Of a DNA stretch of 64,000 nucleotides, positions 9,541 through 58,083 are shown piece after piece (the stretch's first letter is position 1; each line of letters starts with the position of its first letter). This DNA comes from Bifidobacterium sp. (GTDB lineage: Bacteria; Actinomycetota; Actinomycetes; Actinomycetales; Bifidobacteriaceae). The notes under the pieces were generated by a model. It saw nothing but the letters and a program-made list of their open reading frames with translations. It was not told the origin of the DNA and ran no database searches. The stretch is from the NCBI RefSeq assembly GCF_022647885.1, contig NZ_JALCLM010000001.1, forward strand, positions 1,656,610 through 1,720,609, in the 5' to 3' direction. Made by a program: the position numbers and the translations under genes.

Positions 9541-9656
9541 CGATTGTGTAGGGATTTACATCAAGATTCAATGTATGAGGTGACAGCAAACGTTGCAATT
9601 GCAACCTTCTCAATCACCTCATACTCGGTATCTATTGTTAAATCCCTACACAAACG
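9541..9656. repeat. Dispersed palindromic element with conserved terminal inverted repeats, copy 1 (116 bp)
   Basis: CGATTGTGTAGGGATTTA / TAAATCCCTACACAAACG (17/18 complementary). Inner arms GTATGAGGTGA (9573-9583) / TCACCTCATAC (9614-9624). Centre GTTGCAATTGCAAC (9592-9605). Confidence 0.85.
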
Positions 9657-9823
9657 TAATTAGTCAAGATCACGTCAGCATAGCTGTACCAATTCGTGAT
9701 GCCAACGAATCACTTATTGCAGCATTGTGCGCGGTGTCACTAGACGGCGATATCCAAGAGACAATTATTCAGGTCGAAGATTTATGTGAAGCTGCCCAAC
9801 AATTTTCTTGTTACATATGTTGA
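9657..9823 (+). pseudogene. C-terminal remnant of an IclR family regulator
   Basis: VSIAVPIRDANESLIAALCAV resembles the IclR effector-domain motif. No HTH and no plausible start; the similarity begins just after the repeat element. Confidence 0.55.
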
Positions 9824-9912
9824 AATCAGTATTTCTTGAGGAAACCTCCTCTTTACTCAACATCATCTACGTTGTTTGTTATACATACCAGACAACACCA
9901 CTTTATTGATTT

Positions 9913-10899
9913 ATGAAAAGACCATATATGCCTCAGCAAACTCGCAGACCTGCATTTACACGGCTGGTTCCATCATGGTTGTCATCGCAGATTCGCACAT
10001 CTCAACAGCGTAAAGCTATTAAGCGTATTGAAAGCGAAGCTGCACACGATGTAGGTCGCGGCAGCGAATCTCTTGCCGTGCTGACTTATGGGGAGCTGTT
10101 CGAAGCGGCTGAAGCCCTCGCCAATCGCACTAACCATAGAGCTTTGGTGGTCACAGGGTTCTATGTACCCTCTGCAGTTCATCCTGCAGCAGAAACCGAT
10201 GGACCGCTAGGAGCACTGGAGCTATGTGCAGCTTTACGCGCTATCGGTGGAGATGCATGGATGGTAAGTGACGCCCCCTGCGAATCTGTACTCAGACCAT
10301 CAGCAAAATCACTACTGCCGGATGATCACGTACTTATTGCTCCAGTTGATGCAGGATTCGATGAATGGTTCAACAAGGTGCAACAACTTATCAAAGTCGA
10401 AGAAATCGATACTGTGATCTTTATTGAAAGAGTCGGACCTTCTTATGGTGGACTTCCGCGAAATATGCGCGCCTCATGTATCAAGGAATGGACAGCTCCT
10501 CTATCTCGTCTGACCAGTCTAGGTTTGCACACTATCGGCATTGGTGATGGTGGCAATGAAATCGGTATGGGAAAGATTTGGCCTTCTGACATGCAACGGC
10601 TGGTGCGATACGGCGATGAAATCGGATGTTCAGTCGCCACTGATGAACTTATTATTGGAGGCACATCCAACTGGGCAGCCCACGCACTTGTGGGAGCTTT
10701 ACACGTCTTAGGATATAAGGAGTTGGAGCACTTACTAGAAGCATCTTGGCATGAAGAACTGCTGTCTCACATCGTATCAACAGGAAGTATTGATGGCGTC
10801 ACACACGACAACGTTCCCAGCGTAGATGGCCTGAGCGGTGAGGCATATTTTTCGACAATCACATCCATCTCGCAGATAGCTCGTCAACGAACTTGGTGA
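9913..10899 (+). CDS. DUF4392 / glutamate cyclase C-terminal-like domain protein
   Basis: DVGRG, VVTGF, AETDGPLGA, IFIERVGP, TIGIGDGGNEIGMG, IIGGTSNWAA, IDGVT...SVDGL. Confidence 0.85.
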   Translation: MKRPYMPQQTRRPAFTRLVPSWLSSQIRTSQQRKAIKRIESEAAHDVGRGSESLAVLTYGELFEAAEALANRTNHRALVVTGFYVPSAVHPAAETDGPLGALELCAALRAIGGDAWMVSDAPCESVLRPSAKSLLPDDHVLIAPVDAGFDEWFNKVQQLIKVEEIDTVIFIERVGPSYGGLPRNMRASCIKEWTAPLSRLTSLGLHTIGIGDGGNEIGMGKIWPSDMQRLVRYGDEIGCSVATDELIIGGTSNWAAHALVGALHVLGYKELEHLLEASWHEELLSHIVSTGSIDGVTHDNVPSVDGLSGEAYFSTITSISQIARQRTW

Positions 10900-10988
10900 T
10901 TTGGCACAGTAACTCATCATCTCAATTCCAGATAGTGCTACTGCTGGGATTACGATACTTGCTACGAAATTCGACAAATACAACAAAG

Positions 10989-11031
10989 AACTGCCCGTCA
11001 AACTCTTTTGAAACTATTTTGACGGGCAGTT
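10989..11031. terminator. Probable bidirectional terminator
   Basis: 14-bp inverted repeat AACTGCCCGTCAAA / TTTGACGGGCAGTT between convergent genes. Confidence 0.7.
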
Positions 11032-11094
11032 GAGGTTATTATCCGTATACACATAGCTTGTTTATTGCGATGTGATTGACATCATAACGTGCCA

Positions 11095-12510
11095 TTACTG
11101 GTTCCGGTGATGTTTTCGAGAACGACTTATAGCAATTCCCGCTGTACCTACAGCAGTCAAAACCGTAAACACGATTGCTGCCGCAACTACTGCACTACCG
11201 CTACCTGTTTTTGCTAACGATGATGTCTTCTTGGTATCTTCTGCTGATGTTGTTTTGTTCTTATGCGTGGTTGTGGGTTCCGTGGTTGTAGGATCTGTGG
11301 TCGTTGGCTCCGTAGTCGTAGGCTCCGTAGTCGTAGGCTCCGTAGTCGTAGGCTCCGTAGTCGTAGGCTCCGTAGTCGTAGGCTCCGTAGTCGTAGGCTC
11401 CGTAGTCGTAGGCTCCGTAGTCGTAGGCTCCGTAGTCGTGATTACCGGAGTTACTGGATCGGTAGGATCTTTAGTTGGCACCACTGGTGGCACTTTACCT
11501 TTATAAGGGAAATAGTGTTGTTCCGATCCTCCGAAAGTACCGCTCTTAACCACAATGGTTCCTTGAATATTCGCTGATTTTTTCTCCAAGTTTGCTTTGG
11601 GTGCTAACAACGATCCATCGAGAGAATCCCCCGATTGCACGACACTACTTGCATCTGCAGCAACCCACAGCATTGCACTTGGGTCTCTGCTTCCGGCAAG
11701 AGTGAGATTGAAGGTCACTGATGAACCAGAAATTGGAATCACTAAAAAGGTCCCGTCGTCAGCCTTTGGTGTTGTTCCACTAAACGTAATTTCGGTAAGT
11801 GAAGCTAGAGTATCCGCACTGATGGGCCAATAATTTGTTTTTCCCTTGCTCAACGTGACCGTTGATTTGCTACCTTGAATCTCAACTGCTGCTTGAGCTC
11901 CTTGGGTATCAGTTTGTGGATAAGCCGCAATTTGTTGAGCAAGAGACTCCGCAGCACTCTGAGTGAAGAGACTGGCAAATAATCCAGATTTCACTACTGT
12001 GTCGGAACCTTCTCTTGAATTGTTAGCCACAATACTTGGTGAACTGTTCACACCCGCATTTTTCGCCACCACATGTGTGAATATTTGAGCGTTGTTATTA
12101 TCCCGATTAAGCACATCTATTTGTGTATCATCCTCAATCCTTATCGATCCAGTCAACACTTTCAACTGACCTGAGGAATTGCTCAGATCAACCTTATTGC
12201 TTAACAGGCCAATGCCTGAATCATCATCGGTAGTGCTATGTTGTGTTGCAGTGTTGGTGCCGCTGAAACTCAATGTTCCACCCACCGCAACAGCCCCTTC
12301 TGATTCGGCTTGAAGATATGCGTCGCCGTATGTTACAACATTCCATTGCATATAATCCGCCATCAGATACTCTTCTTGGCTAGCGGATGCGGATAATTGT
12401 GGCACCAGTACACCAAATGCCACTACCGATGCAATCAACGCACCGGAAACAATCGCCAGACCTCTATGAGGTTTAGCGGCATTGCTATGAATTTTCATAA
12501 TATTTCCCAA
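11095..12510 (-). CDS. Sortase-anchored adhesin, choice-of-anchor A-like domain plus Pro/Thr-rich stalk
   Basis: Signal peptide ending ASA. Domain motifs WNVVTYGD...ESEGAVAVGG and GSLLAPKA...IQGTIV...SEQHYFPY. PTTTE repeats, then LAKTG + TM + RSRKHH tail. Confidence 0.8.
   Translation of the reverse strand: MGNIMKIHSNAAKPHRGLAIVSGALIASVVAFGVLVPQLSASASQEEYLMADYMQWNVVTYGDAYLQAESEGAVAVGGTLSFSGTNTATQHSTTDDDSGIGLLSNKVDLSNSSGQLKVLTGSIRIEDDTQIDVLNRDNNNAQIFTHVVAKNAGVNSSPSIVANNSREGSDTVVKSGLFASLFTQSAAESLAQQIAAYPQTDTQGAQAAVEIQGSKSTVTLSKGKTNYWPISADTLASLTEITFSGTTPKADDGTFLVIPISGSSVTFNLTLAGSRDPSAMLWVAADASSVVQSGDSLDGSLLAPKANLEKKSANIQGTIVVKSGTFGGSEQHYFPYKGKVPPVVPTKDPTDPVTPVITTTEPTTTEPTTTEPTTTEPTTTEPTTTEPTTTEPTTTEPTTTEPTTTDPTTTEPTTTHKNKTTSAEDTKKTSSLAKTGSGSAVVAAAIVFTVLTAVGTAGIAISRSRKHHRNQ
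11306..11440. repeat. 15-bp tandem repeat x9 encoding the PTTTE stalk
   Basis: GGCTCCGTAGTCGTA unit: 8 exact copies plus 1 with a last-base change; degenerate units continue to about 11276. Confidence 0.95.
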
Positions 12511-13306
12511 CCATCGAGTACTGAATTCCCCATAAGTAGTTTCAGCACTGAATTACTTGTTTGCTCACACAGACTTCTTCAGAACAGCGCTCCCCGACTC
12601 CAACTATTCAGCTAGTACGTCTGTATGTCTGGATGCAAAGCAATGAAACTTTGCATAGGCAGAAAACTCGTCGAAAATATTCCCAAGGCATCTTTTAACT
12701 TGTTTTCTCTGTAGCAGAGACGAAGATTTTTGAACGGCTCAGCATCCACCGACTACTGTCGCTTATCCCCCGATTAGCGATGCATTTCCCAAATTATCGT
12801 CATATCTCAGAGTATCAATTCTGTCTGTTCCGACCAAGATCAGCTGAAAAACCTTCCACATATAGCTATGATCCTCTCCTAAAGCTGAATCTCACAGAAA
12901 TGATGAGGGCATCAAGTATGCAATCATGCTTCTCCCCATACCAGCTGTGGACAACACCATATACGTGCACACTCAGCATTTTTCCAGCAGATACTGTGGT
13001 TTTAGGACCATACTCGATGCTCAAACGCTGCAATCATCGAAAGGGGCAGACTTATGAATGATCGACATTCATGCAGTATTCCACTTTGCGAGAGGACTCC
13101 AAGCGACGAATGGGACACACTGCACAATAAACGGGCAATTCCGGGAACACTTGGAGCGGTTCCAGTATGCGAATTTCACGCTTGGCTACTTGAGCATGGA
13201 GCAAAAATCAACATGCAATTGCGAGGAAAAGAGAACATGCAGTAATAGCCAGCAACTGTGATGATGCTAGTGTCCAAATTACTACTATGTCCGCATTCAC
13301 CATGCT

Positions 13307-13921
13307 TCATACCGTTTTTCTGGCAGACCACTCAGCTCTAGTGATTCGACGGACATCTTCATCTCGGTAAACTTCCCCTGGCAAAAGCTCCATACGAACG
13401 TGGTGCATCGTTCCTGCGTATGACAAACCACACTTTTGCATCACACGTTGTGACTTGATGTTTTCGACATCATGTCTAGCCCACATTGCACGTAACCCCA
13501 GATCAGCAAAACCGTAGCGCAACAGCTCACGAACTGCTTCAGGCACTAAGCCTCTCCCCCAATAAGGTTTAGCAATCCAATAGCCAAATTCACACGCCTG
13601 CGGTTTGTTACCTTCGCTATTCATCCCAGAACCATAGCGGTTACCGTCCACTTCTGTGGAAGTAAAAATCACGGTGCCATATGACAAGCCGATCGAACCT
13701 ATAGGCTCGTCGTTGCCTTTCATAGTAATAGCGAAGGTGTTGGGCACAGCCAATACTGTACGTATAATATCGGCACTTTCCTGAGAGCTGTTATGTATGC
13801 TCCATCCTGCAGATGGACCAATTTCAGGATTGGAAGCGTAGCGATACAATACTTGTGCTTCCAATTCGTTATCAACTTTCCAAGGTCTGAGCACTAAGCG
13901 CTCTGTTTGCAGCACTGTCAT
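13307..13921 (-). CDS. GNAT family N-acetyltransferase (RimJ/RimL-like)
   Basis: LQTERLVLRPW, PIGSIGL, EFGYWIAKPYWGRGLVPEA, NIKSQRVMQKCG. Start placed at ATG 13921. Confidence 0.88.
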   Translation of the reverse strand: MTVLQTERLVLRPWKVDNELEAQVLYRYASNPEIGPSAGWSIHNSSQESADIIRTVLAVPNTFAITMKGNDEPIGSIGLSYGTVIFTSTEVDGNRYGSGMNSEGNKPQACEFGYWIAKPYWGRGLVPEAVRELLRYGFADLGLRAMWARHDVENIKSQRVMQKCGLSYAGTMHHVRMELLPGEVYRDEDVRRITRAEWSARKTV

Positions 13922-13995
13922 AAAAAATTTCCCTTCACCGGCACATAGCGTCATACCGCATGTTCGATATTGCACCCTCAACCGTGCAGTTAGCA

Positions 13996-15303
13996 TCAAG
14001 CTGCTTTGCGTTGTGGCTCTTCATCATGGATGCGTTGCGGTTCCGCTTTACCATCAATGGCGTCTCCATCAACGATAATCGTCTCAACATCGCGCAGTTC
14101 AGGTAATTCAAACATCGTTGATTCTAGAGTTTTCTCGATAATTGAACGCAAACCACGAGCACCAACTCTACGATTCAATGCAGTCCTAGCGATGCGCGTT
14201 ATAGCATCTTCAGTAAACTGCAACTTCACACCATCGCTTGCAAACAGCTTCTTGTATTGCTTCACCAAAGCATTCGCAGGATCCGTGAGAACATGCTCAA
14301 GTTCCTGCTCACTGAGTTCATGAAGAACACTCACTACAGGTAGTCGACCTATGAATTCAGGTAGTAATCCAAATTCTGAAAGGTCATCGGCATCTACCTC
14401 GTTTAATAACTCTTCTGTATTTGGTTGCAGCGTATGCCATGAGGCACCAAAACCGCTTGCATGTTTGCCCAGACGTTGTTCGACGATTTGATCAAGTCCC
14501 ACAAATGCGCCACCACAAATAAACAGGATGCCCCTAGTGTCGATTCGTGCGGTCTCCTGATCACGATGCTTACGCGTGCCTTCCAAAGGCACACTGGCGA
14601 TTGTTCCCTCAAGTATTTTCAGCAGAGCTTGCTGAACTCCTTCACCACTAACATCGCGCGTTATCGAAGTATTCTCACCTGATTTTCGTGCGATTTTATC
14701 GATTTCATCGATATAGATAATGCCATGTTGAGCTCGATCAACATCACCGTCAGCCGCCTGTAACAAGCGCTGTAGCACCGTTTCAACGTCATCTCCAACG
14801 TAGCCAGCCTCAGTAAGAGTCGTCGCGTCAGTAATCACGAAGGGAACATTCATCACTTTGGCTAAGGTTTGAGCTAAATAGGTCTTTCCTACCCCGGTAG
14901 GCCCTAATAACAGAATATTTGATTTCGCAACTTCTACGTCGGCAAAATCATCATATTGCTGCGACCGCGACTTATTATCTATCTGTTTAACTGATTGTTG
15001 CAATTCCAGATTGACGCGCTTGTAATGATTATAAACAGCTACGGCAAGTGTCCTCTTGGCATCCTGTTGCCCAATAACAAAACGGTTCAAATAGGCGAAT
15101 ATTTCGCTAGGTACTGGCAGTTTTAACGCATTTACTTCGACGTCATGTTTGCGTTCTTCCGAAATAATATCAACACACAGTTCAATACACTCGTCGCAAA
15201 TTGCAGAATTTGGACCAGTAACCAGTTTACGAACCTGATGCTCCGTTTTGCCACAGAACTCACAACGTGGGATGTCCTCGTTGTAGCTGACCACACGTCC
15301 CAT
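13996..15303 (-). CDS. clpX: ATP-dependent Clp protease ATP-binding subunit ClpX
   Basis: C4 zinc finger CEFCGK...ICDECIELC, Walker [34 protein letters not shown]. Confidence 0.97.
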
Positions 15304-15477
15304 CTGTCCTCCTGAAGCCTCTTATAAAAAACCCGTTGCTCTGCACACTATTGTGCACCGAGCAACGGGACATGCATATAACGACTCTCGTCGTCTGCAC
15401 AGTACCTACGCCATCAGTCAGAGGTATGTTAACTGATAACAACAGTAAGTACTGTTAACAACAGTCTTATAACCTGA

Positions 15478-16149
15478 CTACTTCCTGTTCTCCAAGACCT
15501 CGTCAACAATGCCATATTCCTTGGCTTGTGCCGCTGTGAGGATGGTATCCGTCTCGATATCCTTACGAATCTTTTCTACAGGCTGACCAGTGTGATGAGA
15601 AAGCGTGTTTTCGAGCCACTCGCGCAGGCGAAGCATCTCTTTCGCTTGAATTTCAATTTCGGTTGCCTTGCCGAAATCTTGCTGCATAGCAGGCTGGTGA
15701 ATCAAAACGCGAGCATTAGGCAGCATAAGACGTTTACCAGGAGCTCCTGCCGCTAGCAGTATAGCTGCTGCGGAAGCAGCTTGGCCCAAGCATACAGTCT
15801 GCACATCAGGCTTGATGTATTGCATCGTGTCATAAATGGCAGTCATGGCGGTCATTGAGCCACCAGGCGAGTTGATGTAAATCATCACATCACGATTTGG
15901 ATCTTGGCTTTCCAAAACGAGCAACTGAGCCATAATGTCGTCTGCAGAGGCATCATCAACCTGTACACCCATGAATATGATGCGATCATCGAAAAGCTTG
16001 GTGTATGGGTCCTGGCGCTTGAAACCGTACGGCGTTTTTTCTTCAAACTGAGGAAGAACGTAACGATTTTCAGCGGCGATACTAGTAATTCCACGCGCTC
16101 CGGCAAGTCTGTCGGCGCGTGCAACGAACTGGGCTTCTTGAGATGCCAT
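15478..16149 (-). CDS. clpP2: Clp protease proteolytic subunit 2
   Basis: DRIIFMG, YINSPGG, GQAASAAA, ARVLIHQP. Confidence 0.95.
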   Translation of the reverse strand: MASQEAQFVARADRLAGARGITSIAAENRYVLPQFEEKTPYGFKRQDPYTKLFDDRIIFMGVQVDDASADDIMAQLLVLESQDPNRDVMIYINSPGGSMTAMTAIYDTMQYIKPDVQTVCLGQAASAAAILLAAGAPGKRLMLPNARVLIHQPAMQQDFGKATEIEIQAKEMLRLREWLENTLSHHTGQPVEKIRKDIETDTILTAAQAKEYGIVDEVLENRK

Positions 16150-16153
16150 CTCG

Positions 16154-16771
16154 TCACTCTCCCTTCTGGGCGTTCATCGTGCCTGGAGTAGTCACAATTT
16201 TGTCTACAAAACCGTATTTCAATGCAGCTTCGGCAGTAAACCAGTGGTCGTACTCATTGTCACGATAGATTTCCTCGACCGTATGACCTGTCTGTTCTGC
16301 AGTCAGCTGGGAAAGGGTTTTCTTCATATCCATGATGAGTTCAGCATTGATGCGAACATCTGTTTGTGTGCCGCCCACACCACCGGATGGTTGATGCATA
16401 AGCACACGGGCATGCGAAGTAATAAAACGCTTGCCTTTAGTGCCACTTGACAACAGAAACTGACCCATGGAAGCTGCCATGCCCACAGCCACAGTCGCTA
16501 CATCAGGCTCAATGAGTTGCATAGTGTCATAAATTGCCATACCTGCAGTAATCGATCCACCAGGTGAATTGATATACAGCCAGATATCCTTGCTCGGATC
16601 CTCTGCAGCAAGCATCAACATTTGTGCACAAATGACGTTGGCGTTGGAGTCCTTAACCTCATCACCGAGCCAGATAATGCGATCCTTAAGCAAACGGTTG
16701 AAAATCGGATCGGTCGGCGAGAACGATTCGCCCTCAGCCAGAACCGGTGAAGTTGCAAGAGAATTGCTCAC
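16154..16771 (-). CDS. clpP1: Clp protease proteolytic subunit 1
   Basis: [45 protein letters not shown] upstream of GTG start. Confidence 0.95.
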
Positions 16772-16820
16772 CGTGTCTCCTTCTATGTGTGGTTATGTAT
16801 TGAGCGTACAGCCCAGAATC

Positions 16821-16835
16821 GACGCTCTAGGCGGC
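16821..16835. promoter_or_regulatory. Candidate ClgR operator
   Basis: CGCT-CTA-GGCG (16823-16833) matches the CGCT-N3-GGCG core of actinobacterial ClgR sites, about 55 bp upstream of clpP1. Flanking bases do not match well. Confidence 0.5.
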
Positions 16836-16919
16836 TTTGCGCTCTCGGCTATGCAAAGGCCCCAAAGACCCACAAATTCATGGGTTTTCGGGGCCACCAA
16901 TTACGCGCTCGGTAAACTA

Positions 16920-18299: not shown

Positions 18300-18346
18300 G
18301 CTGCGCTCCAATTCATCACATTCTGTATTCTGCCTCAAGGCAACCG

Positions 18347-19651: not shown

Positions 19652-19722
19652 TACGTCTAACTCCTTGATTTCGGATAACTACCAGCACTACTCGGTGGAT
19701 GAGTCCGTTACTGATACGACGC

Positions 19723-20388
19723 CTAAAACGCCATATCCCTCAAATACTGAGCCCACATTTGCACCTGTAGATCAGCTTCGAGCCCATGCGACTCTACGCC
19801 CGCAGGCGTCCATGATACCCGTATTTCACAGCTACAGCTTTCTTCCTGCTCAATGACACCAAATGACTGGTTCTCACTTACAGTGACAGTTCCACGCACA
19901 CTGTCTGTCTGCACGCTGGTTAAATGCGCCATCATCTCATCGAGGAACATACTTGATGTGAGCGAATCATGCTCTTGTATTACTATCTCTGTACTAAAAA
20001 AAGCAACACACCGCCATTGAGAATCCCATTCCAAACGTGGCTCGCTCGAGTACAGAATCATAATCCATCCACTCGGGCGATGAGTTGGTGCCAATGCTTG
20101 TGGAATATTGGGATGTTCAGGGTTTGCACTACGCCGATTTTGAGACTGGAGATTCGAGGATGGAGTACAACTCAGTTCTACTCCGATACCGAAATCCGCC
20201 AGACTGGCAGGTACACGAAGCTCATGATAATCGATGGATTCCACTCTATCCATGTGGTGCACAGACTCAACGGCATACCAGAGATCATCAGGCACATCGT
20301 CAGGTCTGATCAATGAACAGTCAGTCTGGTCAAAACCACAGTGAGAAACAGATGCATCATGCACTGGAATGGTAAAAATCTCGGCCAT
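19723..20388 (-). CDS. DUF3000 family protein
   Basis: ELRVPASLADFGIG, GTVT...SFG, EIRVSWTP; usual actinobacterial position next to rnd. Confidence 0.75.
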   Translation of the reverse strand: MAEIFTIPVHDASVSHCGFDQTDCSLIRPDDVPDDLWYAVESVHHMDRVESIDYHELRVPASLADFGIGVELSCTPSSNLQSQNRRSANPEHPNIPQALAPTHRPSGWIMILYSSEPRLEWDSQWRCVAFFSTEIVIQEHDSLTSSMFLDEMMAHLTSVQTDSVRGTVTVSENQSFGVIEQEESCSCEIRVSWTPAGVESHGLEADLQVQMWAQYLRDMAF

Positions 20389-20506: not shown

Positions 20507-20620
20507 CGTTTGTGTAGGGATTTTTTTAGTAACGGCGACTATCACAAGAATTATTCAACGCTATTCCGCCATTCTTGGACTCAACAATGCGAATCGTATT
20601 TTCTAATCCCTACACAACCG
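20507..20620. repeat. Dispersed element with conserved terminal inverted repeats, copy 2 (114 bp)
   Basis: CGTTTGTGTAGGGATT / AATCCCTACACAACCG (15/16 complementary). Only a half central motif, TTCAACG at 20554-20560. Confidence 0.8.
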
Positions 20621-40774: not shown

Positions 40775-40786
40775 TGCTCAATCCCC

Positions 40787-45458: not shown

Positions 45459-45547
45459 AGAACATAAGCTAAAACAAACGCTGGACAGCTCTGTGTTAAT
45501 CCTCACTTTCGAGAACTGTGAACATGGTTTGGGCCATAATGGTACCT

Positions 45548-50396: not shown

Positions 50397-51815
50397 TTAC
50401 CGTGTGCTGTGATGATTACTACCGTTATCGCCATCCGTGTTGCTGCCGTCTGTCTGAGATGAGTGCAATATCTCTCGAATTCTTTCTAGTCTTGGTCCAA
50501 TTTCATGCTCATACCCACGGTCATTGGGATTGTAGTATTGTTGTCCGACCAGCTCATCAGGCATGTATTGCTGTGAGGCAACAGCACCTGGCGAATCATG
50601 TGCATATTGATATCCTTCATGGTTACCCCACGATTTCATCAATGCAGTCGGGGCATTTCGCAAATGCAGCGGAACCTGCCCGATTCTTCCTGCATCAACA
50701 TCGGCTAGGGCTTGGTTGATTGCCATATAACTAGCATTTGATTTAGGGGCAGTAGCTACAGCGATCACTGCTTCGGACAAAATAATTCTTGCCTCGGGCA
50801 TGCCTACCATGGCCACAGCTTGTGCTGCTGCAACAGTAGTTTGCAGTATCTGTGGTGCTGCCATGCCCACTTCCTCACAAGAGGCAATAATAATGCGTCT
50901 CGCAATAAATCGAGGGTCCTCCCCCGCTCGCAGCATACGAGCTAAATAATGTAAGGCTGCATCAACGTCTGAACCGCGCATGGACTTAATGAATGCGCTG
51001 GCCACGTCATAATGATCGTCACCTTTGCGGTCATAACGCACCGTAGCTATATCCATTACTTTAGAGACAACATCGGGTGTGATAACAGGTTTACGAGCAC
51101 CCTTTTTTCTCTTACTGTCGCCCGTCACAGCACCAGCTGCTGCTTCGAGTATTGTCAACGATTTACGTGCATCTCCACCTGCTAAACGAATGATTTCATC
51201 AATTGAAGCATCATCTGCCTTAACCTCATCAGCAAGACCTCGCTTGTCATGTAAGGCCCGCTCTATTAACAGCTGCAAATCCTCAACCTCAAGTGCCTCA
51301 AGTTTGACGACAACTGATCGCGATAGCAGTGGCGAGATTACAGAGAAACTTGGATTTTCAGTGGTTGCCGCGATAAATGTCACATCGCGGTTCTCAACGC
51401 TGGGCAATAAAGCATCTTGCTGAGATTTTGAGAAGCGATGTACTTCGTCGATAAAGAGTACTGTCTCTTTGCCTTCAGTAACCAATCGGTCATGAGCTCG
51501 TCGCAGTACGTCGCGTACATCTTTCACTCCGGAAGTAACAGCGGACAGCTCTTCGAATTCTCTACCGGACTGTCTAGCAACGATATACGCCAGCGTGGTT
51601 TTTCCTACCCCTGGAGGTCCGAACAAAATAACAGAACTCGGCGCTGTAAGGGAGCGGCGCGATGTTGCAGAGGCAAGCCGACGCAGAGGCGATCCTTCGC
51701 TTAATATCTTTGATTGGCCTAAGACCTCATCCAAGGAAGTAGGGCGCATCCTGACAGCCAGCGGTAAGGTGTGTTCGTCCGGCACATCAGCCATACCAAA
51801 CAGATCATCAACCAT
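50397..51815 (-). CDS. rarA: Replication-associated recombination protein A (AAA+ ATPase)
   Basis: PLAVRMRP, GPPGVGKTT, LFIDEVHRFSKSQQD, HYDVASAFIKSMRGSD, VPLHLRN. Confidence 0.95.
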   Translation of the reverse strand: MVDDLFGMADVPDEHTLPLAVRMRPTSLDEVLGQSKILSEGSPLRRLASATSRRSLTAPSSVILFGPPGVGKTTLAYIVARQSGREFEELSAVTSGVKDVRDVLRRAHDRLVTEGKETVLFIDEVHRFSKSQQDALLPSVENRDVTFIAATTENPSFSVISPLLSRSVVVKLEALEVEDLQLLIERALHDKRGLADEVKADDASIDEIIRLAGGDARKSLTILEAAAGAVTGDSKRKKGARKPVITPDVVSKVMDIATVRYDRKGDDHYDVASAFIKSMRGSDVDAALHYLARMLRAGEDPRFIARRIIIASCEEVGMAAPQILQTTVAAAQAVAMVGMPEARIILSEAVIAVATAPKSNASYMAINQALADVDAGRIGQVPLHLRNAPTALMKSWGNHEGYQYAHDSPGAVASQQYMPDELVGQQYYNPNDRGYEHEIGPRLERIREILHSSQTDGSNTDGDNGSNHHSTR

Positions 51816-52060
51816 AAAACCTCCCGCAAGTACTCCCGTACCTTATGCCTATCAACGTCATAACTGAGCTAGCACGAATAGCCACCAGCTGCGCTCGAAC
51901 ATCCGTTCTAATTATATCAATAGCGCTGTAGTTCACTCTGATAGCTATTTCAAGCCAAAAAACATCTCCACAGCACGCATGACATCACCACTGCACGCAA
52001 CATTGTGCGTAGGTGCATGATATGCGATACATAACTCAGTACGCTGCACTGAGAAGAAAT

Positions 52061-54685
52061 CTACTCGTGCTCTTCATCGAGAAGATCTTCTATTGCACCG
52101 ACACGATATGTAAGGAATACTACTTCTCCAGAATTCTGCGTTGCATCCAAATCAACTGTTCCAGCAATTCCCCAATCGTGGTCACCTTCAATATCGTCGA
52201 GAATCTGCCGCACTCGCCACATATGTTCTCTTCGCTCATCCGAGCGGTCTATAACAATGAACTCTTTACCTCTTGCAGCAGCATCGGTGTTTATCGCCTC
52301 ATGTGCGTCATACAGGTCATCAAGAGCTTCCTCCCAGCGATGCACTGGGTAACCCCAATCTCCGTCAAGGTCACCGAGTTGCTCTGGCTTATCGAAGGCA
52401 ATCAGTTGAACTCGGCGGAACATGGCATTACGAATGAGCAACTCCATACCTCGAGGATCAGCGAGCACATCACGTTGCTGTGGTGGCGCCGTGTGCAGAG
52501 CTTGACTATTGATATCTTCACTACCTGCCGATTCCCATTCGTCAACAAGACTGGAATCTACAGAACGTACTAGAAGACGCAACCAGGAAATAATATCGTC
52601 CAACTGTTCATCACGTTTATCTTGTGGGACAGTACGGCTCAGCGCACGATAGGCATCGGAAAGATAACGTAGCAGCGTTCCTTCAGAACGCGAGATTCCA
52701 TATCTAGCGATATATCCTGTGAAATCTGAAGCAGTTTCTACCATGTCTCTCACCACTGATTTAGGGCTCAGCCAGAAGTCATTCGCCCAGGGAACATCAG
52801 CTCGATACTGCGTGAAGGCAGCATCAAGCATCTCCTCCAGAGGCTTCGGGTATGTGATATCAGCAAGTCTTTCCATGCGTTCTTCATATTCGATGCCGTC
52901 AGCCTTCATTTCAGACACTGCCGCATCTTTTGCTTGGCGTTCCTGCGCTCTCAAAACCTGTCTTGGATCATCCAAAGTCGCTTCAACCATCGAAATTACA
53001 TCAAGCGCATAGTTTGACGATTGCTCATCAAGTAGCTCCAAGGCTGCCAACAGAAATGGTGACAGCGGCTGATCCAAAGCAAAATCATCTGGAATTTCGA
53101 TATTCATGAAATATTCCATGGACCCATCACGAAGCTTATCTGCATCAATTACCTCGCTATCAAGCAAGGTCGTAAATATTTCATCAGCTCGCTCATGCAG
53201 GTGCTCTTTCTGCGATGGAGTCTGCTGTGAATCATCAATTAATTCATTGATCCTGCTACGTGCGTCTCCTCCCTGCACTACTTCACTGAGAACCATAGAA
53301 TGAGTGATATTCAGGTGGGGAACTAAGGTCTCGGGCTCAGAGTGAATGAGCTTGTCAAATGTTGCATTATTCCATGTCACAAAACCGTCAGGAGCCTTCT
53401 TGCGCTTGACACGTTTGAGTTTTTTCGGATCATTGCCAGCTTTTGCCACAGCTTTGGCATTCTCAATCTCGTACTCCGGTGCTTGCGCAATCACCAACCC
53501 ATGAGTGTCAAATCCCATCCGCCCTGCTCGACCAGCGATTTGATGAAACTCGCGGGATTTTAACCGCCTCATACGATGACCATCATATTTAGTGAGCCCA
53601 GTGAGTACCACCGTGTGAATTGGTACATTAATTCCCACCCCTAAGGTGTCAGTACCACATATAACAGGCAATAGACCCTGTTGGGCTAGCTGCTCAACCA
53701 AGCGACGATATCTGGGAAGCATTCCCGCATGGTGAACCCCAACACCAGTGCGTAGTAGGCGCTGCAAGATTCGTCCAAAAGCTGTAGTGAATCGAGTACC
53801 CACCATAGCTTCCTTGATGCGTTCTCGTTGCTGCTTATCCGATATCCCACTATTCGACAGTGCCTGCGCCGTCTCTAATGCTGCATCTTGGGCAAAGTGG
53901 ACAATATAAATTGGTGCGTTTTCTTGACGTATTAATAATTCCACTGTTGCGGGCAGAGCAGTCTCCACATACTCATAACTCAGGGGTACTGGTCGCGGCG
54001 CATCAGCAATGACATCAACAGCACTGCCAGTACTCTTCTCCAAAGAGCTAGCAATATTGCTAACATCACCTAGGGTTGCCGACATGAGCAGGAACTGTGT
54101 TCTAGGCAATGTCAACAGTGGTACCTGCCAAGCCCACCCTCGTTCTGGATCACCGTAGTAATGGAACTCATCCATGGCAACACAGGAGACCTCTGCTCGC
54201 TCTCCTTCACGAAGTGCCTGGTTTGCTAAAATCTCAGCCGTACAACAAATAATCGGCGCATCGGTGTTGATATGAGTATCGCCCGTAATCATGCCGACGT
54301 TATCTCTGCCAAAAATCTTCATCAAATCGAAGAATTTTTCACTGACCAAAGCCTTAATCGGCGCCGTGTAATACGACACTCTCCCAGTACACAAAGCTGC
54401 GAAATGCATCCCTAATGCAACTAAGGATTTACCCGAACCGGTAGGCGTATTGAGCACCACATGGTCTCCGGACAATAAGCTAAGCATGGCATCCTCTTGA
54501 TGAGGCCACGGGGTAATACCACGAGATTCCACCCATCTGAAAAAGCGCTCATAAATATCGTCAGCATTCAGGTTTCTTGCTTCATGCCCAATATCAGGAA
54601 GCAACTGAGACAAGGAAAGGCTCTCTTGCTTCTCTAATGCATCATTATCGCTACGATGTTCGTCACTCAATCCGGCAGACTCCAT
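52061..54685 (-). CDS. Ski2-like DEAD/DEAH helicase with DUF3516-type C-terminus
   Basis: TPTGSGKS, YTAPIKALVSEK, MDEFHYY, MSATLG, GTDTLGVGINVP, QIAGRAGR. Confidence 0.9.
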   Translation of the reverse strand: MESAGLSDEHRSDNDALEKQESLSLSQLLPDIGHEARNLNADDIYERFFRWVESRGITPWPHQEDAMLSLLSGDHVVLNTPTGSGKSLVALGMHFAALCTGRVSYYTAPIKALVSEKFFDLMKIFGRDNVGMITGDTHINTDAPIICCTAEILANQALREGERAEVSCVAMDEFHYYGDPERGWAWQVPLLTLPRTQFLLMSATLGDVSNIASSLEKSTGSAVDVIADAPRPVPLSYEYVETALPATVELLIRQENAPIYIVHFAQDAALETAQALSNSGISDKQQRERIKEAMVGTRFTTAFGRILQRLLRTGVGVHHAGMLPRYRRLVEQLAQQGLLPVICGTDTLGVGINVPIHTVVLTGLTKYDGHRMRRLKSREFHQIAGRAGRMGFDTHGLVIAQAPEYEIENAKAVAKAGNDPKKLKRVKRKKAPDGFVTWNNATFDKLIHSEPETLVPHLNITHSMVLSEVVQGGDARSRINELIDDSQQTPSQKEHLHERADEIFTTLLDSEVIDADKLRDGSMEYFMNIEIPDDFALDQPLSPFLLAALELLDEQSSNYALDVISMVEATLDDPRQVLRAQERQAKDAAVSEMKADGIEYEERMERLADITYPKPLEEMLDAAFTQYRADVPWANDFWLSPKSVVRDMVETASDFTGYIARYGISRSEGTLLRYLSDAYRALSRTVPQDKRDEQLDDIISWLRLLVRSVDSSLVDEWESAGSEDINSQALHTAPPQQRDVLADPRGMELLIRNAMFRRVQLIAFDKPEQLGDLDGDWGYPVHRWEEALDDLYDAHEAINTDAAARGKEFIVIDRSDERREHMWRVRQILDDIEGDHDWGIAGTVDLDATQNSGEVVFLTYRVGAIEDLLDEEHE

Positions 54686-54818
54686 TTCTGTGCTGTCGCT
54701 GGCACTCTAGACAAAGCATGCTCTAAACAGCGCGATCAGCCTCACACCATAGTAGAGATGGTGTGATGTTCAACAACCTTCTCTTGCAGTGTATCCTCTA
54801 CACCATTGACACTCATGC

Positions 54819-55862
54819 TCACTGTGTTGATTGAGGAGCAGGGCCAGAGGTACCTCGCAAAATTAGTCTGGTGCCCACCAACGCATGAGGTTGTTCCATT
54901 CTCAGATGATTCATGAGCTGTATGGCTTGTTTCCCTGCCATTCTTGCCATATGAACAGGGTCTTGGTGGATGGTCGTCAAATCCGCGACCGGAGCAATTC
55001 TGCTGTCGTCAAAACCGATAACTGTCATGTCCTCAGGCACTCTGATACCAAATTTGCGAAGCCGTGCTATTAAAGCCACCGCGAAATCATCTGTTTCAAC
55101 GCAAACTGCTGTCGGTCGTTGAACTTGTGCCAATAAATCTGCCAATACAGACGACACTGCGGCATCGATAGAATATTCGCCCTGCTGTGCTTCTGCCTCC
55201 AACATCAGTATGTCCTGAGAGCCATACCCACACTCTTTTGACGAATCTAGAAATGACTTCGATCTCAACTTCACACTGAACGCGAATTCAAGGTCAGATG
55301 GTTGCCCCACATAAGCTAAGCGGCGATGCCCAAGCGAGCGCAGTAGCTGCACAGCTTCTTTCATTGCTTGGCGTTCATCAAGGCGCACCGAGGCATCGTA
55401 CCCATCGTGCGTACGTGAATCGAGCCCTATTGTAGGAATCGTCAGACCTTCAAGAAGTTCAAGCTTCTCTTTATCTAGATCAAAGGATGTCACAATGAGA
55501 GCATCCGCATTCCTATTGCCCGGCAATAGCTCAAAATACCGGTCTTGAGACTGCTGGTCTGGTGTGATTAACGGTACGATGTCATATCCAGCGGGTGCTA
55601 AAGCCTCATAAGCACCTTGCATAACCGAAGCATTGAACCATGAGTTCACAGGCCCAGCAAAGAGCATTGTTACTCGCATGGTTCTTCCAGAAGCTAGTGA
55701 TGAAGCACTGCGTGAAAAAGTGAAGTGCAAACGCTGTGCAGCTTCTTCTACGCGAGTTCTGGTACCTGGATCAACACGATTTAGTCCTCGCAATGCTCTT
55801 GACACTGTTGAGTCGGAAACCCCTGCTTCAATGGCGACATCGTGTATGGTCATTCTCGCCAC
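54819..55862 (-). CDS. LacI family transcriptional regulator (MalR-like position)
   Basis: TIHDVAIEAGVSDSTVSRALR, VPEDMTVIGFDD; divergent from the GH13 gene. Confidence 0.92.
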   Translation of the reverse strand: MARMTIHDVAIEAGVSDSTVSRALRGLNRVDPGTRTRVEEAAQRLHFTFSRSASSLASGRTMRVTMLFAGPVNSWFNASVMQGAYEALAPAGYDIVPLITPDQQSQDRYFELLPGNRNADALIVTSFDLDKEKLELLEGLTIPTIGLDSRTHDGYDASVRLDERQAMKEAVQLLRSLGHRRLAYVGQPSDLEFAFSVKLRSKSFLDSSKECGYGSQDILMLEAEAQQGEYSIDAAVSSVLADLLAQVQRPTAVCVETDDFAVALIARLRKFGIRVPEDMTVIGFDDSRIAPVADLTTIHQDPVHMARMAGKQAIQLMNHLRMEQPHALVGTRLILRGTSGPAPQSTQ

Positions 55863-55938
55863 TGTTTTCTCCTTAACTCATATGACATGAACCATCCTCA
55901 GCTCACATTGCCATACTCATCATAACTTGTGAAAATTC

Positions 55939-56016
55939 TGCAAGCGCATTTACATGTAAATTCATTGAAAAATCAATCATTAACGCACTTAATTGCATTA
56001 TTCTGTGCAAGCGCTA
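55939..56016. promoter_or_regulatory. Two LacI-type operator candidates
   Basis: TGCAAGCGCATT at 55939 and TGCAAGCGCTAT at 56006 in the divergent LacI/GH13 intergenic region. Confidence 0.5.
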
Positions 56017-56093
56017 TTATTCTTCTTGACGCAAGAAAATTCTGCTTAACAGCAGGCTGAGCACACCTAATAGTTGTCAATGAGGAGAACGCG

Positions 56094-57938
56094 ATGGAGA
56101 CATCAACCACAACCAACACATCACAAATTAACACCGCAACATCCCCACTGTCTGACGCGTGGTGGAAACAGGCTGTGGTATATCAAATTTATCCTCGCTC
56201 CTTTAAAGACACCACAGGCTCTGGGCTCGGTGACATCGCAGGCATCACCAGCAAAATTGGGTATCTTAAACAGCTCGGCGTTGATGCTATATGGCTCTCA
56301 CCGTTTTATCCCTCAGAGCTTGCCGATGGCGGTTACGACGTAGCTGACTATCGTAATGTTGATCCCAAACTCGGATCTATGGATGATTTTGATGAACTTG
56401 CAAACACAGCTCATCAGCAGGGCATCAAAATCGTTGTAGACATCGTGCCGAATCATTCTTCCGATCAGCACCCTTGGTTTCAAGAAGCATTACAAGCGGA
56501 ACCAGGATCACCTGCACGAAATCGATATATCTTCCGCAACGGCCGCGGTGAACACGGCGAACTGCCACCGACCCAGTGGATCAGCAGTTTTGGCGCTCCT
56601 GCTTGGACAAGGGTTTCTGACGGACAATGGTATCTGCATATGTTCGCCAAAGAGCAGCCTGATTTCAATTGGGATAATCCCGAAATCCGAGAGGACTTCC
56701 TCAAGACTTTGCGCTTCTGGAGCGATCATGGCGCCGATGGTTTCCGCATCGATGTAGCTCACGGATTAGCGAAAGATCTAGACAGAGATGACCTCGATCA
56801 GTGGAGTATTAATAACGACACACTCCCAAGTGATGGAAGTCATCCACTCTATGATCGAGACGAAGTACACAATATATACCGCTCCTGGCGCAAAGTGTTT
56901 AATGAATATAATCCGCCACGATTTGCCGTAGCTGAAGCTTGGGTAAATCCACAGCGTCAGCACTTGTATTCAAGCCCCGATGAACTTGGGCAGATATTCA
57001 ATTTCGAATTTGCCAAGAAAAACTGGGTTCGCGATGAGCTCCATGAGGCTATTGAGGATGGTATTGCACAAGCCGAGCGCTCAGGCTCAACCTCTACTTG
57101 GGTAATGAGTAACCACGATGTGCCACGTCATGCCTCTAGATATGGTTTGCCACAGGTCCCTGCTCGCCAGCATCACCGTCTCGCAGCAGATTGGATTCTT
57201 CGCAATGGTGGTTCATATTTCGAAGATCGAGAGCTTGGTAATCGTAGGGCAAGGGCAGCTATACTCCTTGAGCTTGCGTTGCCCGGATCGACTTATATTT
57301 ATCAGGGTGAAGAACTTGGTTTGCCAGAGGTCCCAGATCTACCTTGGGATGCCTTGGAAGATCCAGAAGCCCAAGGGACATCACGCACAGGCATGGTCAA
57401 GGGTCGCGATGGATGCAGAGTTCCACTGCCATGGATTGCTGAAGACTCCCCTATCCTCGATGCTGAGGTGCCGGCTGTCCAAGGCATTTCACATTTCGGA
57501 CATATTGATGAACGCAGTGGTGCAGGTTCATTTGGTTTTTCACCAAAAATGCGCACAGATGGTGTCACAACAAGCGCAGAACCTCACTTACCGCAACCTG
57601 ACTGGTTCGCTCAGTATGCCGTAGATCGCGAAGAATCAGATGAACATTCGATGCTGTCCTTATACCGCACAGCGCTTGAACTGAGACATAATCATCAGAT
57701 CTCGGATGCTACTGTGACATGGCTTGAGGATATTGATCAATCTTCCAATGAACGCGATGGTGCCGATGGGCAAGTTGGCGGAGCAATCGCATACCGTAGA
57801 GCAAATGGTTGGGCAAATATCACCAACTTTAGCGATCACGATATTGCGCTGCCTGATGGAGAGCTTCTGCTCTCCTCAGCACCACTACATGACGGTCAAC
57901 TTCCGCAAGATACTTCCGTTTGGATGATGTTGAGATAG
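56094..57938 (+). CDS. GH13 alpha-glucosidase / oligo-1,6-glucosidase
   Basis: VVYQIYPRSF, DIVPNH, GFRIDVAH, VAEAW, SNHD, YIYQGEELG, GRDGCRVPLPW. Confidence 0.93.
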   Translation: METSTTTNTSQINTATSPLSDAWWKQAVVYQIYPRSFKDTTGSGLGDIAGITSKIGYLKQLGVDAIWLSPFYPSELADGGYDVADYRNVDPKLGSMDDFDELANTAHQQGIKIVVDIVPNHSSDQHPWFQEALQAEPGSPARNRYIFRNGRGEHGELPPTQWISSFGAPAWTRVSDGQWYLHMFAKEQPDFNWDNPEIREDFLKTLRFWSDHGADGFRIDVAHGLAKDLDRDDLDQWSINNDTLPSDGSHPLYDRDEVHNIYRSWRKVFNEYNPPRFAVAEAWVNPQRQHLYSSPDELGQIFNFEFAKKNWVRDELHEAIEDGIAQAERSGSTSTWVMSNHDVPRHASRYGLPQVPARQHHRLAADWILRNGGSYFEDRELGNRRARAAILLELALPGSTYIYQGEELGLPEVPDLPWDALEDPEAQGTSRTGMVKGRDGCRVPLPWIAEDSPILDAEVPAVQGISHFGHIDERSGAGSFGFSPKMRTDGVTTSAEPHLPQPDWFAQYAVDREESDEHSMLSLYRTALELRHNHQISDATVTWLEDIDQSSNERDGADGQVGGAIAYRRANGWANITNFSDHDIALPDGELLLSSAPLHDGQLPQDTSVWMMLR

Positions 57939-57955
57939 CATCACAGCAGTCAAAA

Positions 57956-58083
57956 ACGTTTGTGTAGGGATTTTTACTGAGACCAAGAGTATCTGTGCCA
58001 CACGTCATTTTTAGAATGGCGTTATTGCAGTCTTTTGGCCCGATATCCGAGGGTTATCTACTTTGGTATCCCTACACAAACGT
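57956..58083. repeat. Dispersed element with conserved terminal inverted repeats, copy 4 (128 bp)
   Basis: Perfect 16-bp ACGTTTGTGTAGGGAT / ATCCCTACACAAACGT. Internal dyad ACGTCATT (58002-58009) / AATGGCGT (58015-58022), 7/8. Confidence 0.85.

Follow-up and report, generated by a model that had tools for sequence, protein, structure and literature searches.

What are four short intergenic stretches that are bounded by the same inverted repeat and differ from each other in the sequence between? They occur in a 64,000-nucleotide stretch of Bifidobacterium sp. DNA (contig NZ_JALCLM010000001.1, positions 1,656,610 to 1,720,609), hereafter called the window. The lineage concerned (W) is an AT-shifted relative of Bifidobacterium crudilactis. 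We consider it rather probable that the four copies are members of a dispersed family of small, non-autonomous mobile elements, which are MITE-like. The element is approximately 115 bp long and non-coding. Its inverted ends of 16 bp and its centre are fixed, and it sits just behind genes. A preliminary description of the window had already proposed a dispersed family of this kind, with conserved ends and centre, and this view is retained; the ends are probably protein-bound, judging from their conservation. The family is undescribed, with no match in Rfam or in the literature searched, which agrees with the earlier failure to recognise it as a named element. To our knowledge, bifidobacteria are not known for intergenic repeats of the REP, Correia or MITE type.

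The Four Copies in the Window

The four copies that had been described are real and were confirmed in place, far beyond chance expectation. The 15-mer CGTTTGTGTAGGGAT occurs nine times in the window when up to three mismatches are allowed, compared to 1.36 expected occurrences and a maximum of five in 100 shuffles. Eight of the nine are accounted for by the four copies, each with two ends. The 11-mer core TGTGTAGGGAT (at most one mismatch) is found in the window only at the eight copy ends. With a sequence model (R1) based on 38 copies, the hits in the window at E<10 are exactly these four copies and no others. The copies are spaced by 8-29 kb, among housekeeping genes (pflA, MCRA, clpX region). 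As had been noted, each lies just past the 3' end of a gene, 12-84 bp downstream of a stop codon. The neighbouring genes are in tandem for copies 1 and 2 and converge on copies 3 and 4.

Copy 1 (9541-9656, 116 bp) separates a biotin-carboxylase gene (stop at 9517) from a GLUCM-like gene. Its left end (9541-9556, plus strand) is CGATTGTGTAGGGATT and its right end (9641-9656, minus strand) is AATCCCTACACAAACG. The centre, AACGTTGCAATTGCAAC (9589-9605), has AA and TT on either side of the exact midpoint (9598/9599), consistent with the midpoint dyad described before. The interior is 81% self-complementary over 52 nt. Copy 2 (20507-20620, 114 bp) is located between pflA (minus strand, stop at 20705) and a DUF3000 gene. 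Its centre (20559-20573, minus strand) is AATGGCGGAATAGCG, with no mismatch to the family half-site AATGGCGGAAT.

Copy 3 (28566-28680, 115 bp) is found between convergent genes for a HAD hydrolase and MCRA (oleate hydratase-like). Its left end is slightly decayed (CAGTTCTGTAGGGATT). It has a central perfect palindrome of 20+20 nt (28603-28642), which is terminator-like on the minus strand; three of the base pairs differ from the B. crudilactis orthologue and are changed on both sides. Copy 4 (57957-58082, 126 bp from CG to CG, limits which are preferable to those given originally) is located between convergent genes of the alpha-amylase family and for PPK2. Its left arm has 65 bp instead of 54/55 and is thus one helical turn longer. 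The centre (58015-58026, plus strand), AATGGCGTTATT, has two mismatches to the family half-site. The separate dyad that had been attributed to this copy is abandoned, being a half-site of AATGGCGGAATT, as in copy 2.

Anatomy and Distribution of the Family

Further copies were sought, and 43-46 were pooled from the window organism, from B. crudilactis and from a third sister lineage (J). There are five copies in ~80 kb of W and at least 35 in one metagenome assembly that is B. crudilactis-like. Copy number per genome was extrapolated from ~80 kb of W, ~40 kb of B. crudilactis and ~60 kb of J; the density in the B. crudilactis clade is roughly one copy per 15-20 kb. Viral contigs had only solitary chance matches. 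Rfam covariance models did not match at the gathering score in the window and 14 related loci, nor at E<=1 on the elements of the window.

The layout is two-fold symmetric: a 16-bp end, CGTTTGTGTAGGGATT, is followed by an arm, a dyad centre, a second arm and the same end inverted (AATCCCTACACAAACG). The inverted repeat of the preliminary description thus stands, with a conserved length of 16 rather than 15 bp. It is nearly invariant across 76 ends, with an invariant core of 12-13 bp. The centre, AATGGCGGAATT(C)C, is exactly 54/55 bp from either end. In the alignment of the copies (A2), the ends are invariant, and G55, A58 and T59 of the centre are kept in at least 90% of the copies. The GTAG core of the end is weakly repeated as subterminal GTAG-like motifs at about +14 and +25. 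The arms are essentially random from copy to copy (pairwise interior identity of 0.577 vs a null value of 0.554 among the pooled copies).

With respect to gene context, 16 copies are located between convergent, 17 between tandem and three between divergent genes. The distance from the stop codon is mostly 4-80 bp. The location just past stop codons is most simply interpreted as a set of tolerated insertion sites.

Mobility and Site Occupancy

In L150, two copies share 78% identity that stops at the limits of the element, their flanks being unrelated. Orthologous sites also differ in occupancy. Copy 1 is confined to the window lineage: B. crudilactis and J lack it at the orthologous site, and the genes that flank this site are just 4 bp apart in J. 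The pflA site (copy 2) is filled in W and B. crudilactis, and is empty in J and Bifidobacterium psychraerophilum. An ATP-grasp site is filled in B. crudilactis and J and is empty in L182. Because of these differences in occupancy, together with the element-only homology of one pair, the element must have been mobile, having been copied as a unit to new sites. Comparison of orthologous sites, as had been suggested, supports mobility and also shows copies retained between lineages at four sites.

Whichever offset was taken for the boundaries, CG/CG was the only direct repeat in the range of 2-8 bp, and it may belong to the inverted repeat itself; given the age of most copies, a duplication could have decayed in them. 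The reported lack of a visible target-site duplication thus holds, the possible CG aside. The same applies to the lack of a transposase or recombinase in the window: no such domain was found in called genes at 1-20000 and 51300-64000 and in ~16 kb beyond both window ends. In the middle of the window, open reading frames were listed and the domain scan covered the genes that flank the copies, equally with no such domain. Among the called genes of ~200 kb of W, B. crudilactis and J, there is no domain of a transposase, an integrase or Y1 (RAYT-type HUH tyrosine transposase). An autonomous element or partner protein with the family ends was not found in the window or the related loci, and the W, B. 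crudilactis and J loci examined have no multi-copy open reading frame.

Selection on Sequence and Spacing

W and B. crudilactis have proteins that are 93.6% identical, but only 37% of the four-fold sites are identical. Copies 2 and 3 have orthologues in B. crudilactis. For four orthologous element pairs across lineages with saturated synonymous sites, the ends are 93%, the centres 73% and the arms 48% identical. Their lengths are 114/115, 115/115, 115/115 and 104/104, while the surrounding intergenic DNA varies freely in length. Hence, the arms drift freely once inserted, while purifying selection maintains the ends, the centre and the distance from either end to the centre. Since time and a 10-point shift in G+C have scrambled the arms, the remaining features are a direct read-out of selection.

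The total length is constant to within 1 bp, except for copies with one arm that is ~10 bp shorter or longer. Among the 43 pooled copies, 38 are 108-110 bp long. An arm measures 54/55 bp, and all deviating arms fall at 44-46 or 63-65 bp. The tolerated variants thus differ by about one helical turn only, as seen in five independent length variants. This phasing argues for duplex DNA.

Folding of the Copies

The preliminary description had inferred selection on a long single-stranded hairpin with compensating interiors. This is not upheld. When 38 aligned copies are folded as a full-length hairpin, 57.7% of the cells are paired vs 57.9% after shuffling, with 311 of 500 shuffles being at least as high. 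Of the changes at semi-variable end positions, 39 disrupt base pairing, five result in a wobble and five preserve the pair. It should be noted that this test is based on edge positions of the repeat, and that the invariant end core of 12-13 bp does not by itself tell whether the site acts as duplex DNA or as a stem of RNA or ssDNA.

The strong self-complementarity reported for the interiors of copies 1 and 3 was reproduced (fold z about -9.4 to -11.7), with 58-nt arms that are 74% complementary and, in copy 3, the palindrome of 20+20 nt. Without their ends, copies 2 and 4 have much weaker folds (interior z of +0.8 and -1.3). As only about six of 43 interiors fold better than z = -3 and pairing is not family-wide, self-complementarity as in copies 1 and 3 is confined to a minority of the family. 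Copies 1-3 were checked for intrinsic terminators. Only copy 3 has a G+C-rich hairpin with a T-run facing the incoming gene; copy 1 has a weak terminator-like match on the wrong strand, and copy 2 has none at all. From its sequence, an individual copy such as copy 3 also supplies a terminator-like hairpin.

Interpretation and Alternatives

The conservation of ends, centre and exact length points to a DNA-binding protein. In the reading that we prefer, ends and centre are candidate protein-binding sites, phased on double-stranded DNA. The selected unit might instead be a structure at the transcript 3' end: read-through RNA would pair the 16-nt ends and, in some copies, form central hairpins, thus stabilising or terminating the upstream mRNA, as for REP and Correia elements. 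We regard this as unlikely, even though every copy is just past a stop codon and would be transcribed, and whole copies fold well (z -3.4 to -11.7) because their ends pair. The hairpin of copy 3 is in line with an RNA structure, as are its two-sided changes, but the latter could also stem from template switching within a quasi-palindrome. After tRNA-Arg, the window lineage has a short hairpin built from the same end motif in place of the ordinary terminator. However, complementarity beyond the ends is not family-wide, and variable end positions change without compensation. About 90 ends are devoid of G-C to A-U swaps, and a stem alone does not need such strict invariance. Why arm lengths should change in ~10-bp steps is not obvious if the interior is unpaired RNA. 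The asymmetric centre has the same orientation as the incoming gene in 13 cases and the opposite one in seven, so that a preference is not significant, and a hairpin with a T-run faces the incoming gene in only one of the three copies scanned.

Long-lived, vertically inherited non-autonomous units that are replicated on ssDNA by a single-copy HUH (Y1) transposase, as in REPIN-RAYT systems, were among the earlier proposals. The ends with inward-facing GTAG/CTAC fit, as do long persistence, vertical inheritance, retention at orthologous sites and the lack of a target duplication; in marmoset bifidobacteria, the units TGTAGGGAnnnTCCCA could form tiny 4-bp hairpins beside GTAG. A defining feature is nevertheless missing: on direct reading, CGTTTGTGTAGGGATT has no internal dyad and is not a palindrome, so there is no REP hairpin. 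The arms being random, there is no population of near-identical sequences. The Y1_Tnp domain is encoded by no called gene in ~200 kb of annotated loci, helical-turn phasing favours duplex DNA, and the whole unit does not fold as a long hairpin family-wide. This origin is very unlikely. The same low probability is assigned to sites of a site-specific recombinase, be it an attC-like folded site, a miniature arm+core attachment site or a segment that inverts between its inverted repeats. With its inverted ends, dyad centre and constant, phased spacing, the element does resemble bent arm/core sites, and copies differ in the orientation of the asymmetric centre. Of the arm+core picture proposed initially, the fixed-distance geometry fits, while a recombinase is lacking: neither integrase nor invertase was seen in the called genes of the examined loci. 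The attC R-box consensus is RYYYAAC / GTTRRRY. The ends read CGTTTGTG...CACAAACG and lack it, by direct comparison with this consensus; the interior is not generally self-complementary, so that an attC-type folded strand is not matched either, and cassette arrays are absent, the neighbours being housekeeping genes. In assembled contigs, the centre has the same orientation in orthologues of different lineages and in all six contigs with the whole copy 1. There is thus no sign of inversion, and, with neutral arms, no promoter or other cargo would be switched. Finally, host-made paired operators of a DNA-looping regulator or an architectural protein might have arisen in place, without mobility. 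They would account for selection on ends, centre and phasing and for maintenance at orthologous sites. It is, however, very unlikely that a three-part architecture of 115 bp arose independently dozens of times; the element-only homology of two copies and the lineage-specific gains show copying, and a location after stop codons is odd for operators. We consider this explanation extremely improbable.

Comparison to Known Repeat Families

Correia elements (CREE/NEMIS) of Neisseria are intergenic, have 100-155 bp, terminal inverted repeats and a central IHF site, and occur in hundreds of copies, often at gene ends, where they are transcribed as hairpins. The likeness concerns size, intergenic location, inverted ends and a protein site in mid-element. 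However, Correia copies are alike over their full length and have TA duplications, whereas the Bifidobacterium copies are alike only in ends and centre and lack a TA duplication. There is no sequence similarity, and the Bifidobacterium centre is G+C-rich and not IHF-like.

The BIME-1 / RIP elements of Escherichia coli (REP-IHF site-REP) share the inverted GTAG/CTAC ends around a central protein-binding site, the position at 3' ends of transcription units and long persistence. In BIMEs, each REP is a hairpin and dependent on RAYT, while the Bifidobacterium ends are non-palindromic and a RAYT was not seen in the examined loci; fixed 54/55-bp arms with helical-turn steps have not been described for BIMEs. 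REPINs are similar in being non-autonomous inverted pairs with vertical inheritance, orthologous retention and no target duplication. Their populations are near-identical clouds around a master sequence and form long hairpins, neither of which applies here. Classical IS-derived MITEs are comparable in small size (114-126 bp in our case), terminal inverted repeats, multiple copies, element-only duplication and variable occupancy. The Bifidobacterium family differs in that neither a parent IS nor a target duplication is known for it. While MITEs decay, the old copies of this family have ends that are kept intact by selection, which is unusual. In architecture only, P1 parS and transposon ends with a bend site are also comparable, being two-arm sites that are phased across a central bend and joined in one complex; these are single-copy functional sites of plasmids or transposons, whereas the Bifidobacterium family is dispersed and chromosomal.

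Marmoset bifidobacteria have distant relatives with tandem 19-bp end units, two to five on each side of a centre. Their inner spacings are 53 (seven copies), 64/65 (six copies), 73 and 83 bp. The modular structure with a variable number of short tandem units is reminiscent of pneumococcal BOX elements. In contrast to BOX, to which their sequence is unrelated, the Bifidobacterium elements have unit arrays that face each other in inverted orientation across a centre and have the TGTAGGGA core in common.

Possible Role of the Elements

We propose that ends and centre are bound on double-stranded DNA by one protein or complex, which might be a cognate transposase, a domesticated descendant thereof or a host factor. 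The complex would join both ends across the bent centre, either as a paired-end transposition complex or as a small looped nucleoprotein complex. A more far-reaching possibility, which we advance tentatively and regard as less likely than not, is that the family is not decaying junk and about 100 copies have been exapted as symmetric landing pads (end - 54 bp - centre - 54 bp - end) for an undescribed, possibly transposase-derived DNA-binding complex. Species of the B. crudilactis clade would maintain these pads in helical register at the 3' ends of genes, with the tandem 19-bp units of the marmoset sister family serving the same purpose. If true, Actinomycetota would have a novel chromosomal system that is architectural or insulating in function. 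As ends and centre can be used as bait, the search for the binding protein is straightforward, and its identification would show if a miniature transposon became a structural or termination element of the chromosome. On the practical side, short-read assemblies of these genomes are broken by the repeats, which can also be used as strain and lineage markers for dairy and bioreactor bifidobacteria.

Anatomy of the repeat

The window contains four copies, at 9541-9656, 20507-20620, 28566-28680 and 57957-58082 (copies 1-4), where the preliminary description placed them, except that copy 4 is trimmed by 1 bp at each side. The 15-mer of the element ends, allowing up to 3 mismatches, matches the window at 9 positions, where 1.36 would be expected; no shuffle out of 100 reached that number. 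Eight of the nine are ends of copies 1-4, and the 11-mer core of the ends is confined, in the window, to these positions. A search with R1, a sequence model of the family built from 38 copies, recovered exactly the same four, with no weaker match at E<10. All four lie 12-84 bp beyond a stop codon, in agreement with their described position just past gene 3' ends. A Logan contig of run X14 stops precisely where copy 1 begins on its left side (9540/9541), which is consistent with repeats breaking short-read assemblies. Metagenome contigs of divergent strains were compared with the window; the output was noisy, and no deletion or inversion was found at the copies.

The element consists of 16-bp inverted ends, a dyad centre and two arms between them, and the two-end pattern of the family is CGTTTGTGTAGGGATT...AATCCCTACACAAACG. 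End positions -2 to +13 (CGTTTGTGTAGGGATT) are nearly invariant in 76 ends, and a position profile found no conservation outside this range. Inside the element, G.GTAGAC (+17 to +24) and TAT (+31 to +33) weakly echo the GTAG core. The centre is AATGGCGGAATT(C)C, and its AA|TT marks the exact midpoint. As a rule a single half-site, which may be on either strand, is well preserved. The orientation of this asymmetric centre with respect to the incoming gene is not significantly biased (13 vs 7). A minority, including copies 1 and 3, has a longer central palindrome instead, AACGTTG(A/C)AATT(T/G)CAACGTT.

The sequence between ends and centre is unrelated among copies (pairwise identity 0.577, null 0.554). 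The length from TTGTG to CACAA is 108-110 bp in 38 of 43 copies, and the distance from end to centre is 54 or 55 bp. Arms depart from this distance only at 44-46 bp, in three independent cases, and at 63-65 bp, in copy 4 and in L131, a locus outside the window. Given these lengths, all departures amount to about one helical turn, an argument with few length variants behind it.

Copy number and distribution

A metagenome scan for two exact 11-mers at 75-105 bp spacing returned 37 loci, 33 of which are from a single assembly (OMJG01, 57-60% G+C) that is Bifidobacterium crudilactis-like judged by the flanking genes. Looser matching pooled 43 copies from B. crudilactis and the window organism, which is present in bioreactor-sludge metagenomes; three more came later from a third sister lineage, J (JGI metagenome 3300044557). 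The window organism has five copies in about 80 kb, B. crudilactis two in a 21-kb stretch (L166) and J three in a 22-kb stretch (L180). Other stretches of about 20 kb from the latter two have none. By extrapolation, not by count, a copy would occur roughly every 15-20 kb, giving a genome total on the order of 100. R1 had no hit in B. psychraerophilum, B. aquikefiri or L182, a locus from a more distant Bifidobacterium, with about 20 kb searched for each. By crude ORF calls, 36 copies could be classified (16 convergent, 17 tandem, 3 divergent), and most of them have a stop codon at a distance of 4-80 bp.

Copying and insertion sites

Locus L150 carries two copies 4 kb apart, which are 78% identical over exactly the element and a flanking CCG, with unrelated flanks. 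Filled and empty sites, which the preliminary description had regarded as informative for mobility, do differ in occupancy between lineages. The site of copy 1 has no copy in B. crudilactis or J, the pflA site (copy 2) is empty in J and B. psychraerophilum, and an ATP-grasp site is empty in L182. Because homology is restricted to the element and occupancy differs, the element was copied as a unit, at different times within the clade.

None of these comparisons gave a clean junction for the exact ends, the intergenic sequence having diverged too far. Copy 1 is flanked by the biotin-carboxylase and GLUCM-like genes, which are 395 bp apart in the window organism, 4 bp apart in J and adjacent in B. 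crudilactis, so that the site lies inside about 395 bp of lineage-specific DNA. In the corresponding region (9520-9912), copy 1 supplies 116 bp of added DNA; the remaining ~280 bp, mainly an AT-rich 256 bp (9657-9912), have no match anywhere in the loci examined. The interior of copy 1 has no match in nearby DNA that might have served as a copying source.

The reported lack of a target-site duplication holds at any offset; the sole candidate is a CG on both sides of TTTGTG...CACAAA. Since an altered CG is not accompanied by a change in its partner, the CG may just belong to the repeat itself. The TGTAG-starting ends with their 2-bp CG flank may resemble the ends of IS30-family elements.

Likewise, the statement that no transposase or recombinase accompanies the element extends beyond the window. 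Transposase, integrase and Y1 domains are absent from the called genes of the fetched loci of all three lineages, and no multi-copy ORF was found in the loci examined. At the left window end, the ORFs without known function encode a leucine-rich surface protein and TetR regulators. A 683-aa ORF (1418-3469, minus strand) has no Pfam domain; its only matches, to internalin-like (leucine-rich repeat) and C-terminal anchor-like sequences, are weak, and it is missing from the syntenic region of J.

Conservation at orthologous sites

Nine syntenic proteins of the window organism and B. crudilactis are 93.6% identical on average (63-99% per gene), and the PflA flanking copy 2 is 97-98% identical. G+C is 48% in the window vs 58% in L166 of B. 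crudilactis, 10 points lower in the window organism. Four-fold degenerate sites are just 37% identical, so that neutral sites are saturated; their G+C is 0.41 in the window organism vs 0.72 in B. crudilactis. This points to a strong and recent AT-biased mutational shift in the window organism. Lineage J is about equidistant (92.8% to the window organism, 93.7% to B. crudilactis), and B. psychraerophilum is outside this trio (about 91%).

Copies 2 (between pflA and a DUF3000 gene) and 3 (between HAD-hydrolase and MCRA genes) have orthologous copies in B. crudilactis, which were located via a flanking protein, independently of the motif. Two more sites, ATP-grasp/transglutaminase and L17/truA, are shared by B. 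crudilactis and J. The L17/truA copies both have one arm that is 10 bp shorter, a shared derived state of the two lineages.

Across the four orthologous pairs, identity is 93% in the ends, 73% in the centres and 48% in the arms. Element lengths are 114/115, 115/115, 115/115 and 104/104 bp, unlike the intergenic DNA around the copies, which ranges from about 100 to about 315 bp. The end cores of the window organism have one change among about 50 G positions, though four-fold G+C is 0.41. As ends, centre and length are kept while synonymous sites are saturated, ends, centre and spacing are under purifying selection and the arms close to neutral.

Interpretation

The preliminary description had suggested selection on a long ssDNA/RNA hairpin with fixed protein-binding ends. 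Strong self-complementarity was indeed confirmed for the interiors of copies 1 and 3, and copies 2 and 4 do not have it. Family-wide, selection on a long hairpin is not borne out. Folding of the interiors alone gives a mean z of -1.0, with z < -3 in only about 6 of 43. In the 38-copy alignment, the full-length hairpin pairs 57.7% of cells; column-preserving shuffles reach 57.9%, and the control is not exceeded by any covariation measure. At the semi-variable end positions (-2, -1, 0, +13), pairing is lost in 39 changes, turned into a wobble in 5 and retained in 5, a test restricted to the repeat edges as the core never varies. Arm-to-arm complementarity is 0.555 vs a between-copy null of 0.532 (p = 0.02), with 8 copies driving the excess. 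Self-complementarity is thus real in some copies, and it neither defines nor preserves the family. A role as RNA 3' structure is possible for individual copies. Among copies 1-3, copy 3 alone has a terminator-like hairpin and T-run facing the incoming gene, and an end-motif hairpin after tRNA-Arg in the window organism hints at such a role, which, however, leaves the family-wide constraints unexplained. In this hairpin (AATCCCTACAG-N9-CTGTAGGGATT, following tRNA-Arg(ACG) at L121 2133-2163, window about -69 to -39), the family end motif occurs with its arms in swapped order; an ordinary terminator hairpin, unrelated to this one, occupies the same site in B. crudilactis (L184 2306-2345).

Two further proposals are unlikely. 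The ends are not palindromic, unlike those of REPs, and there is no Y1 domain in the called genes of the fetched loci, which argues against a REPIN-like element. As for an attC-like folded site, the ends lack the attC consensus, and the copies are outside cassette arrays. A phage or plasmid origin was also rejected: viral contigs hold only solitary chance 16-mers and no pair of the unit found in marmoset species (see below). The preliminary description did not recognise the family as a named element; it has no Rfam match, and no description was found in the literature searched.

The comparisons establish that the element was copied as a unit, that its arms are neutral, that its ends and centre are selected and that arm lengths are kept modulo a helical turn. 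For these reasons, the family is best explained as a MITE-like element, with phased, putative binding sites on duplex DNA at its ends and centre. These sites would be bound by one protein or complex, and a gain to the host would keep the sites intact.

Related and similar repeats

A genome collection was scanned for TGTAGGGAT-N80-110-ATCCCTACA, a short pattern with chance and unrelated matches among those listed. The matches listed also include relatives from marmoset bifidobacteria (B. reuteri, B. myosotis, B. jacchi and B. callitrichidarum; L009, L011, L020, L028, L030, L054, L066, L070, L072, L076, L092, L096 and L102). These relatives share the TGTAGGGA core, have a centre related to that of the family (AAAATGGCGGAAT..GCCATTTT) and score 14-28 bits with R1. 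Each arm consists of 2-5 tandem 19-bp units (CCCAYGGTGTAGGGAnnnn). The innermost inverted units are 53, 64/65, 73 or 83 bp apart, again steps of about one helical turn. The units form inverted arrays around a hairpin-like centre flanked by A and T runs; a solitary half-array occurs at L020 4590-4625.

Downstream of MCRA, where the window organism and B. crudilactis have copy 3, J and B. aquikefiri have a different palindromic element of ~120 bp (L171 2940-3060, L169 5230-5349; TIR GAGATTTCRAGTTTT, ends GAGATTTC(A/G)AGTTTT), single-copy among the loci examined. The J copy contains AAGTAGAC and AAATGGC..CGCCATT, resembling the family's subterminal and centre motifs. The unrelated, low-G+C MAG CBDBZY01 has a repeat of very high abundance, in part tandem and inverted, with several TGTAG motifs (ATGTAGAGGGATGTAGGGATGG...; L001 2280-3060 and about 30 other loci), which matched solely by a shared 9-mer. 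Perfect palindromes of ~100 bp bounded by TGTGTAGGGAT occur in metagenome contigs of 41-44% G+C (L142 1085-1592, L145, L149) and are probably unrelated to the family beyond the shared 11-mer; in L142 the right half of the palindrome is also found as an 82-bp tandem array. Elsewhere in the window, a sub-threshold TPP riboswitch match (45358-45461, minus strand; 43.4 bits vs a gathering threshold of 54.3, E = 3e-5) lies upstream of a 209-aa ORF (44658-45287).
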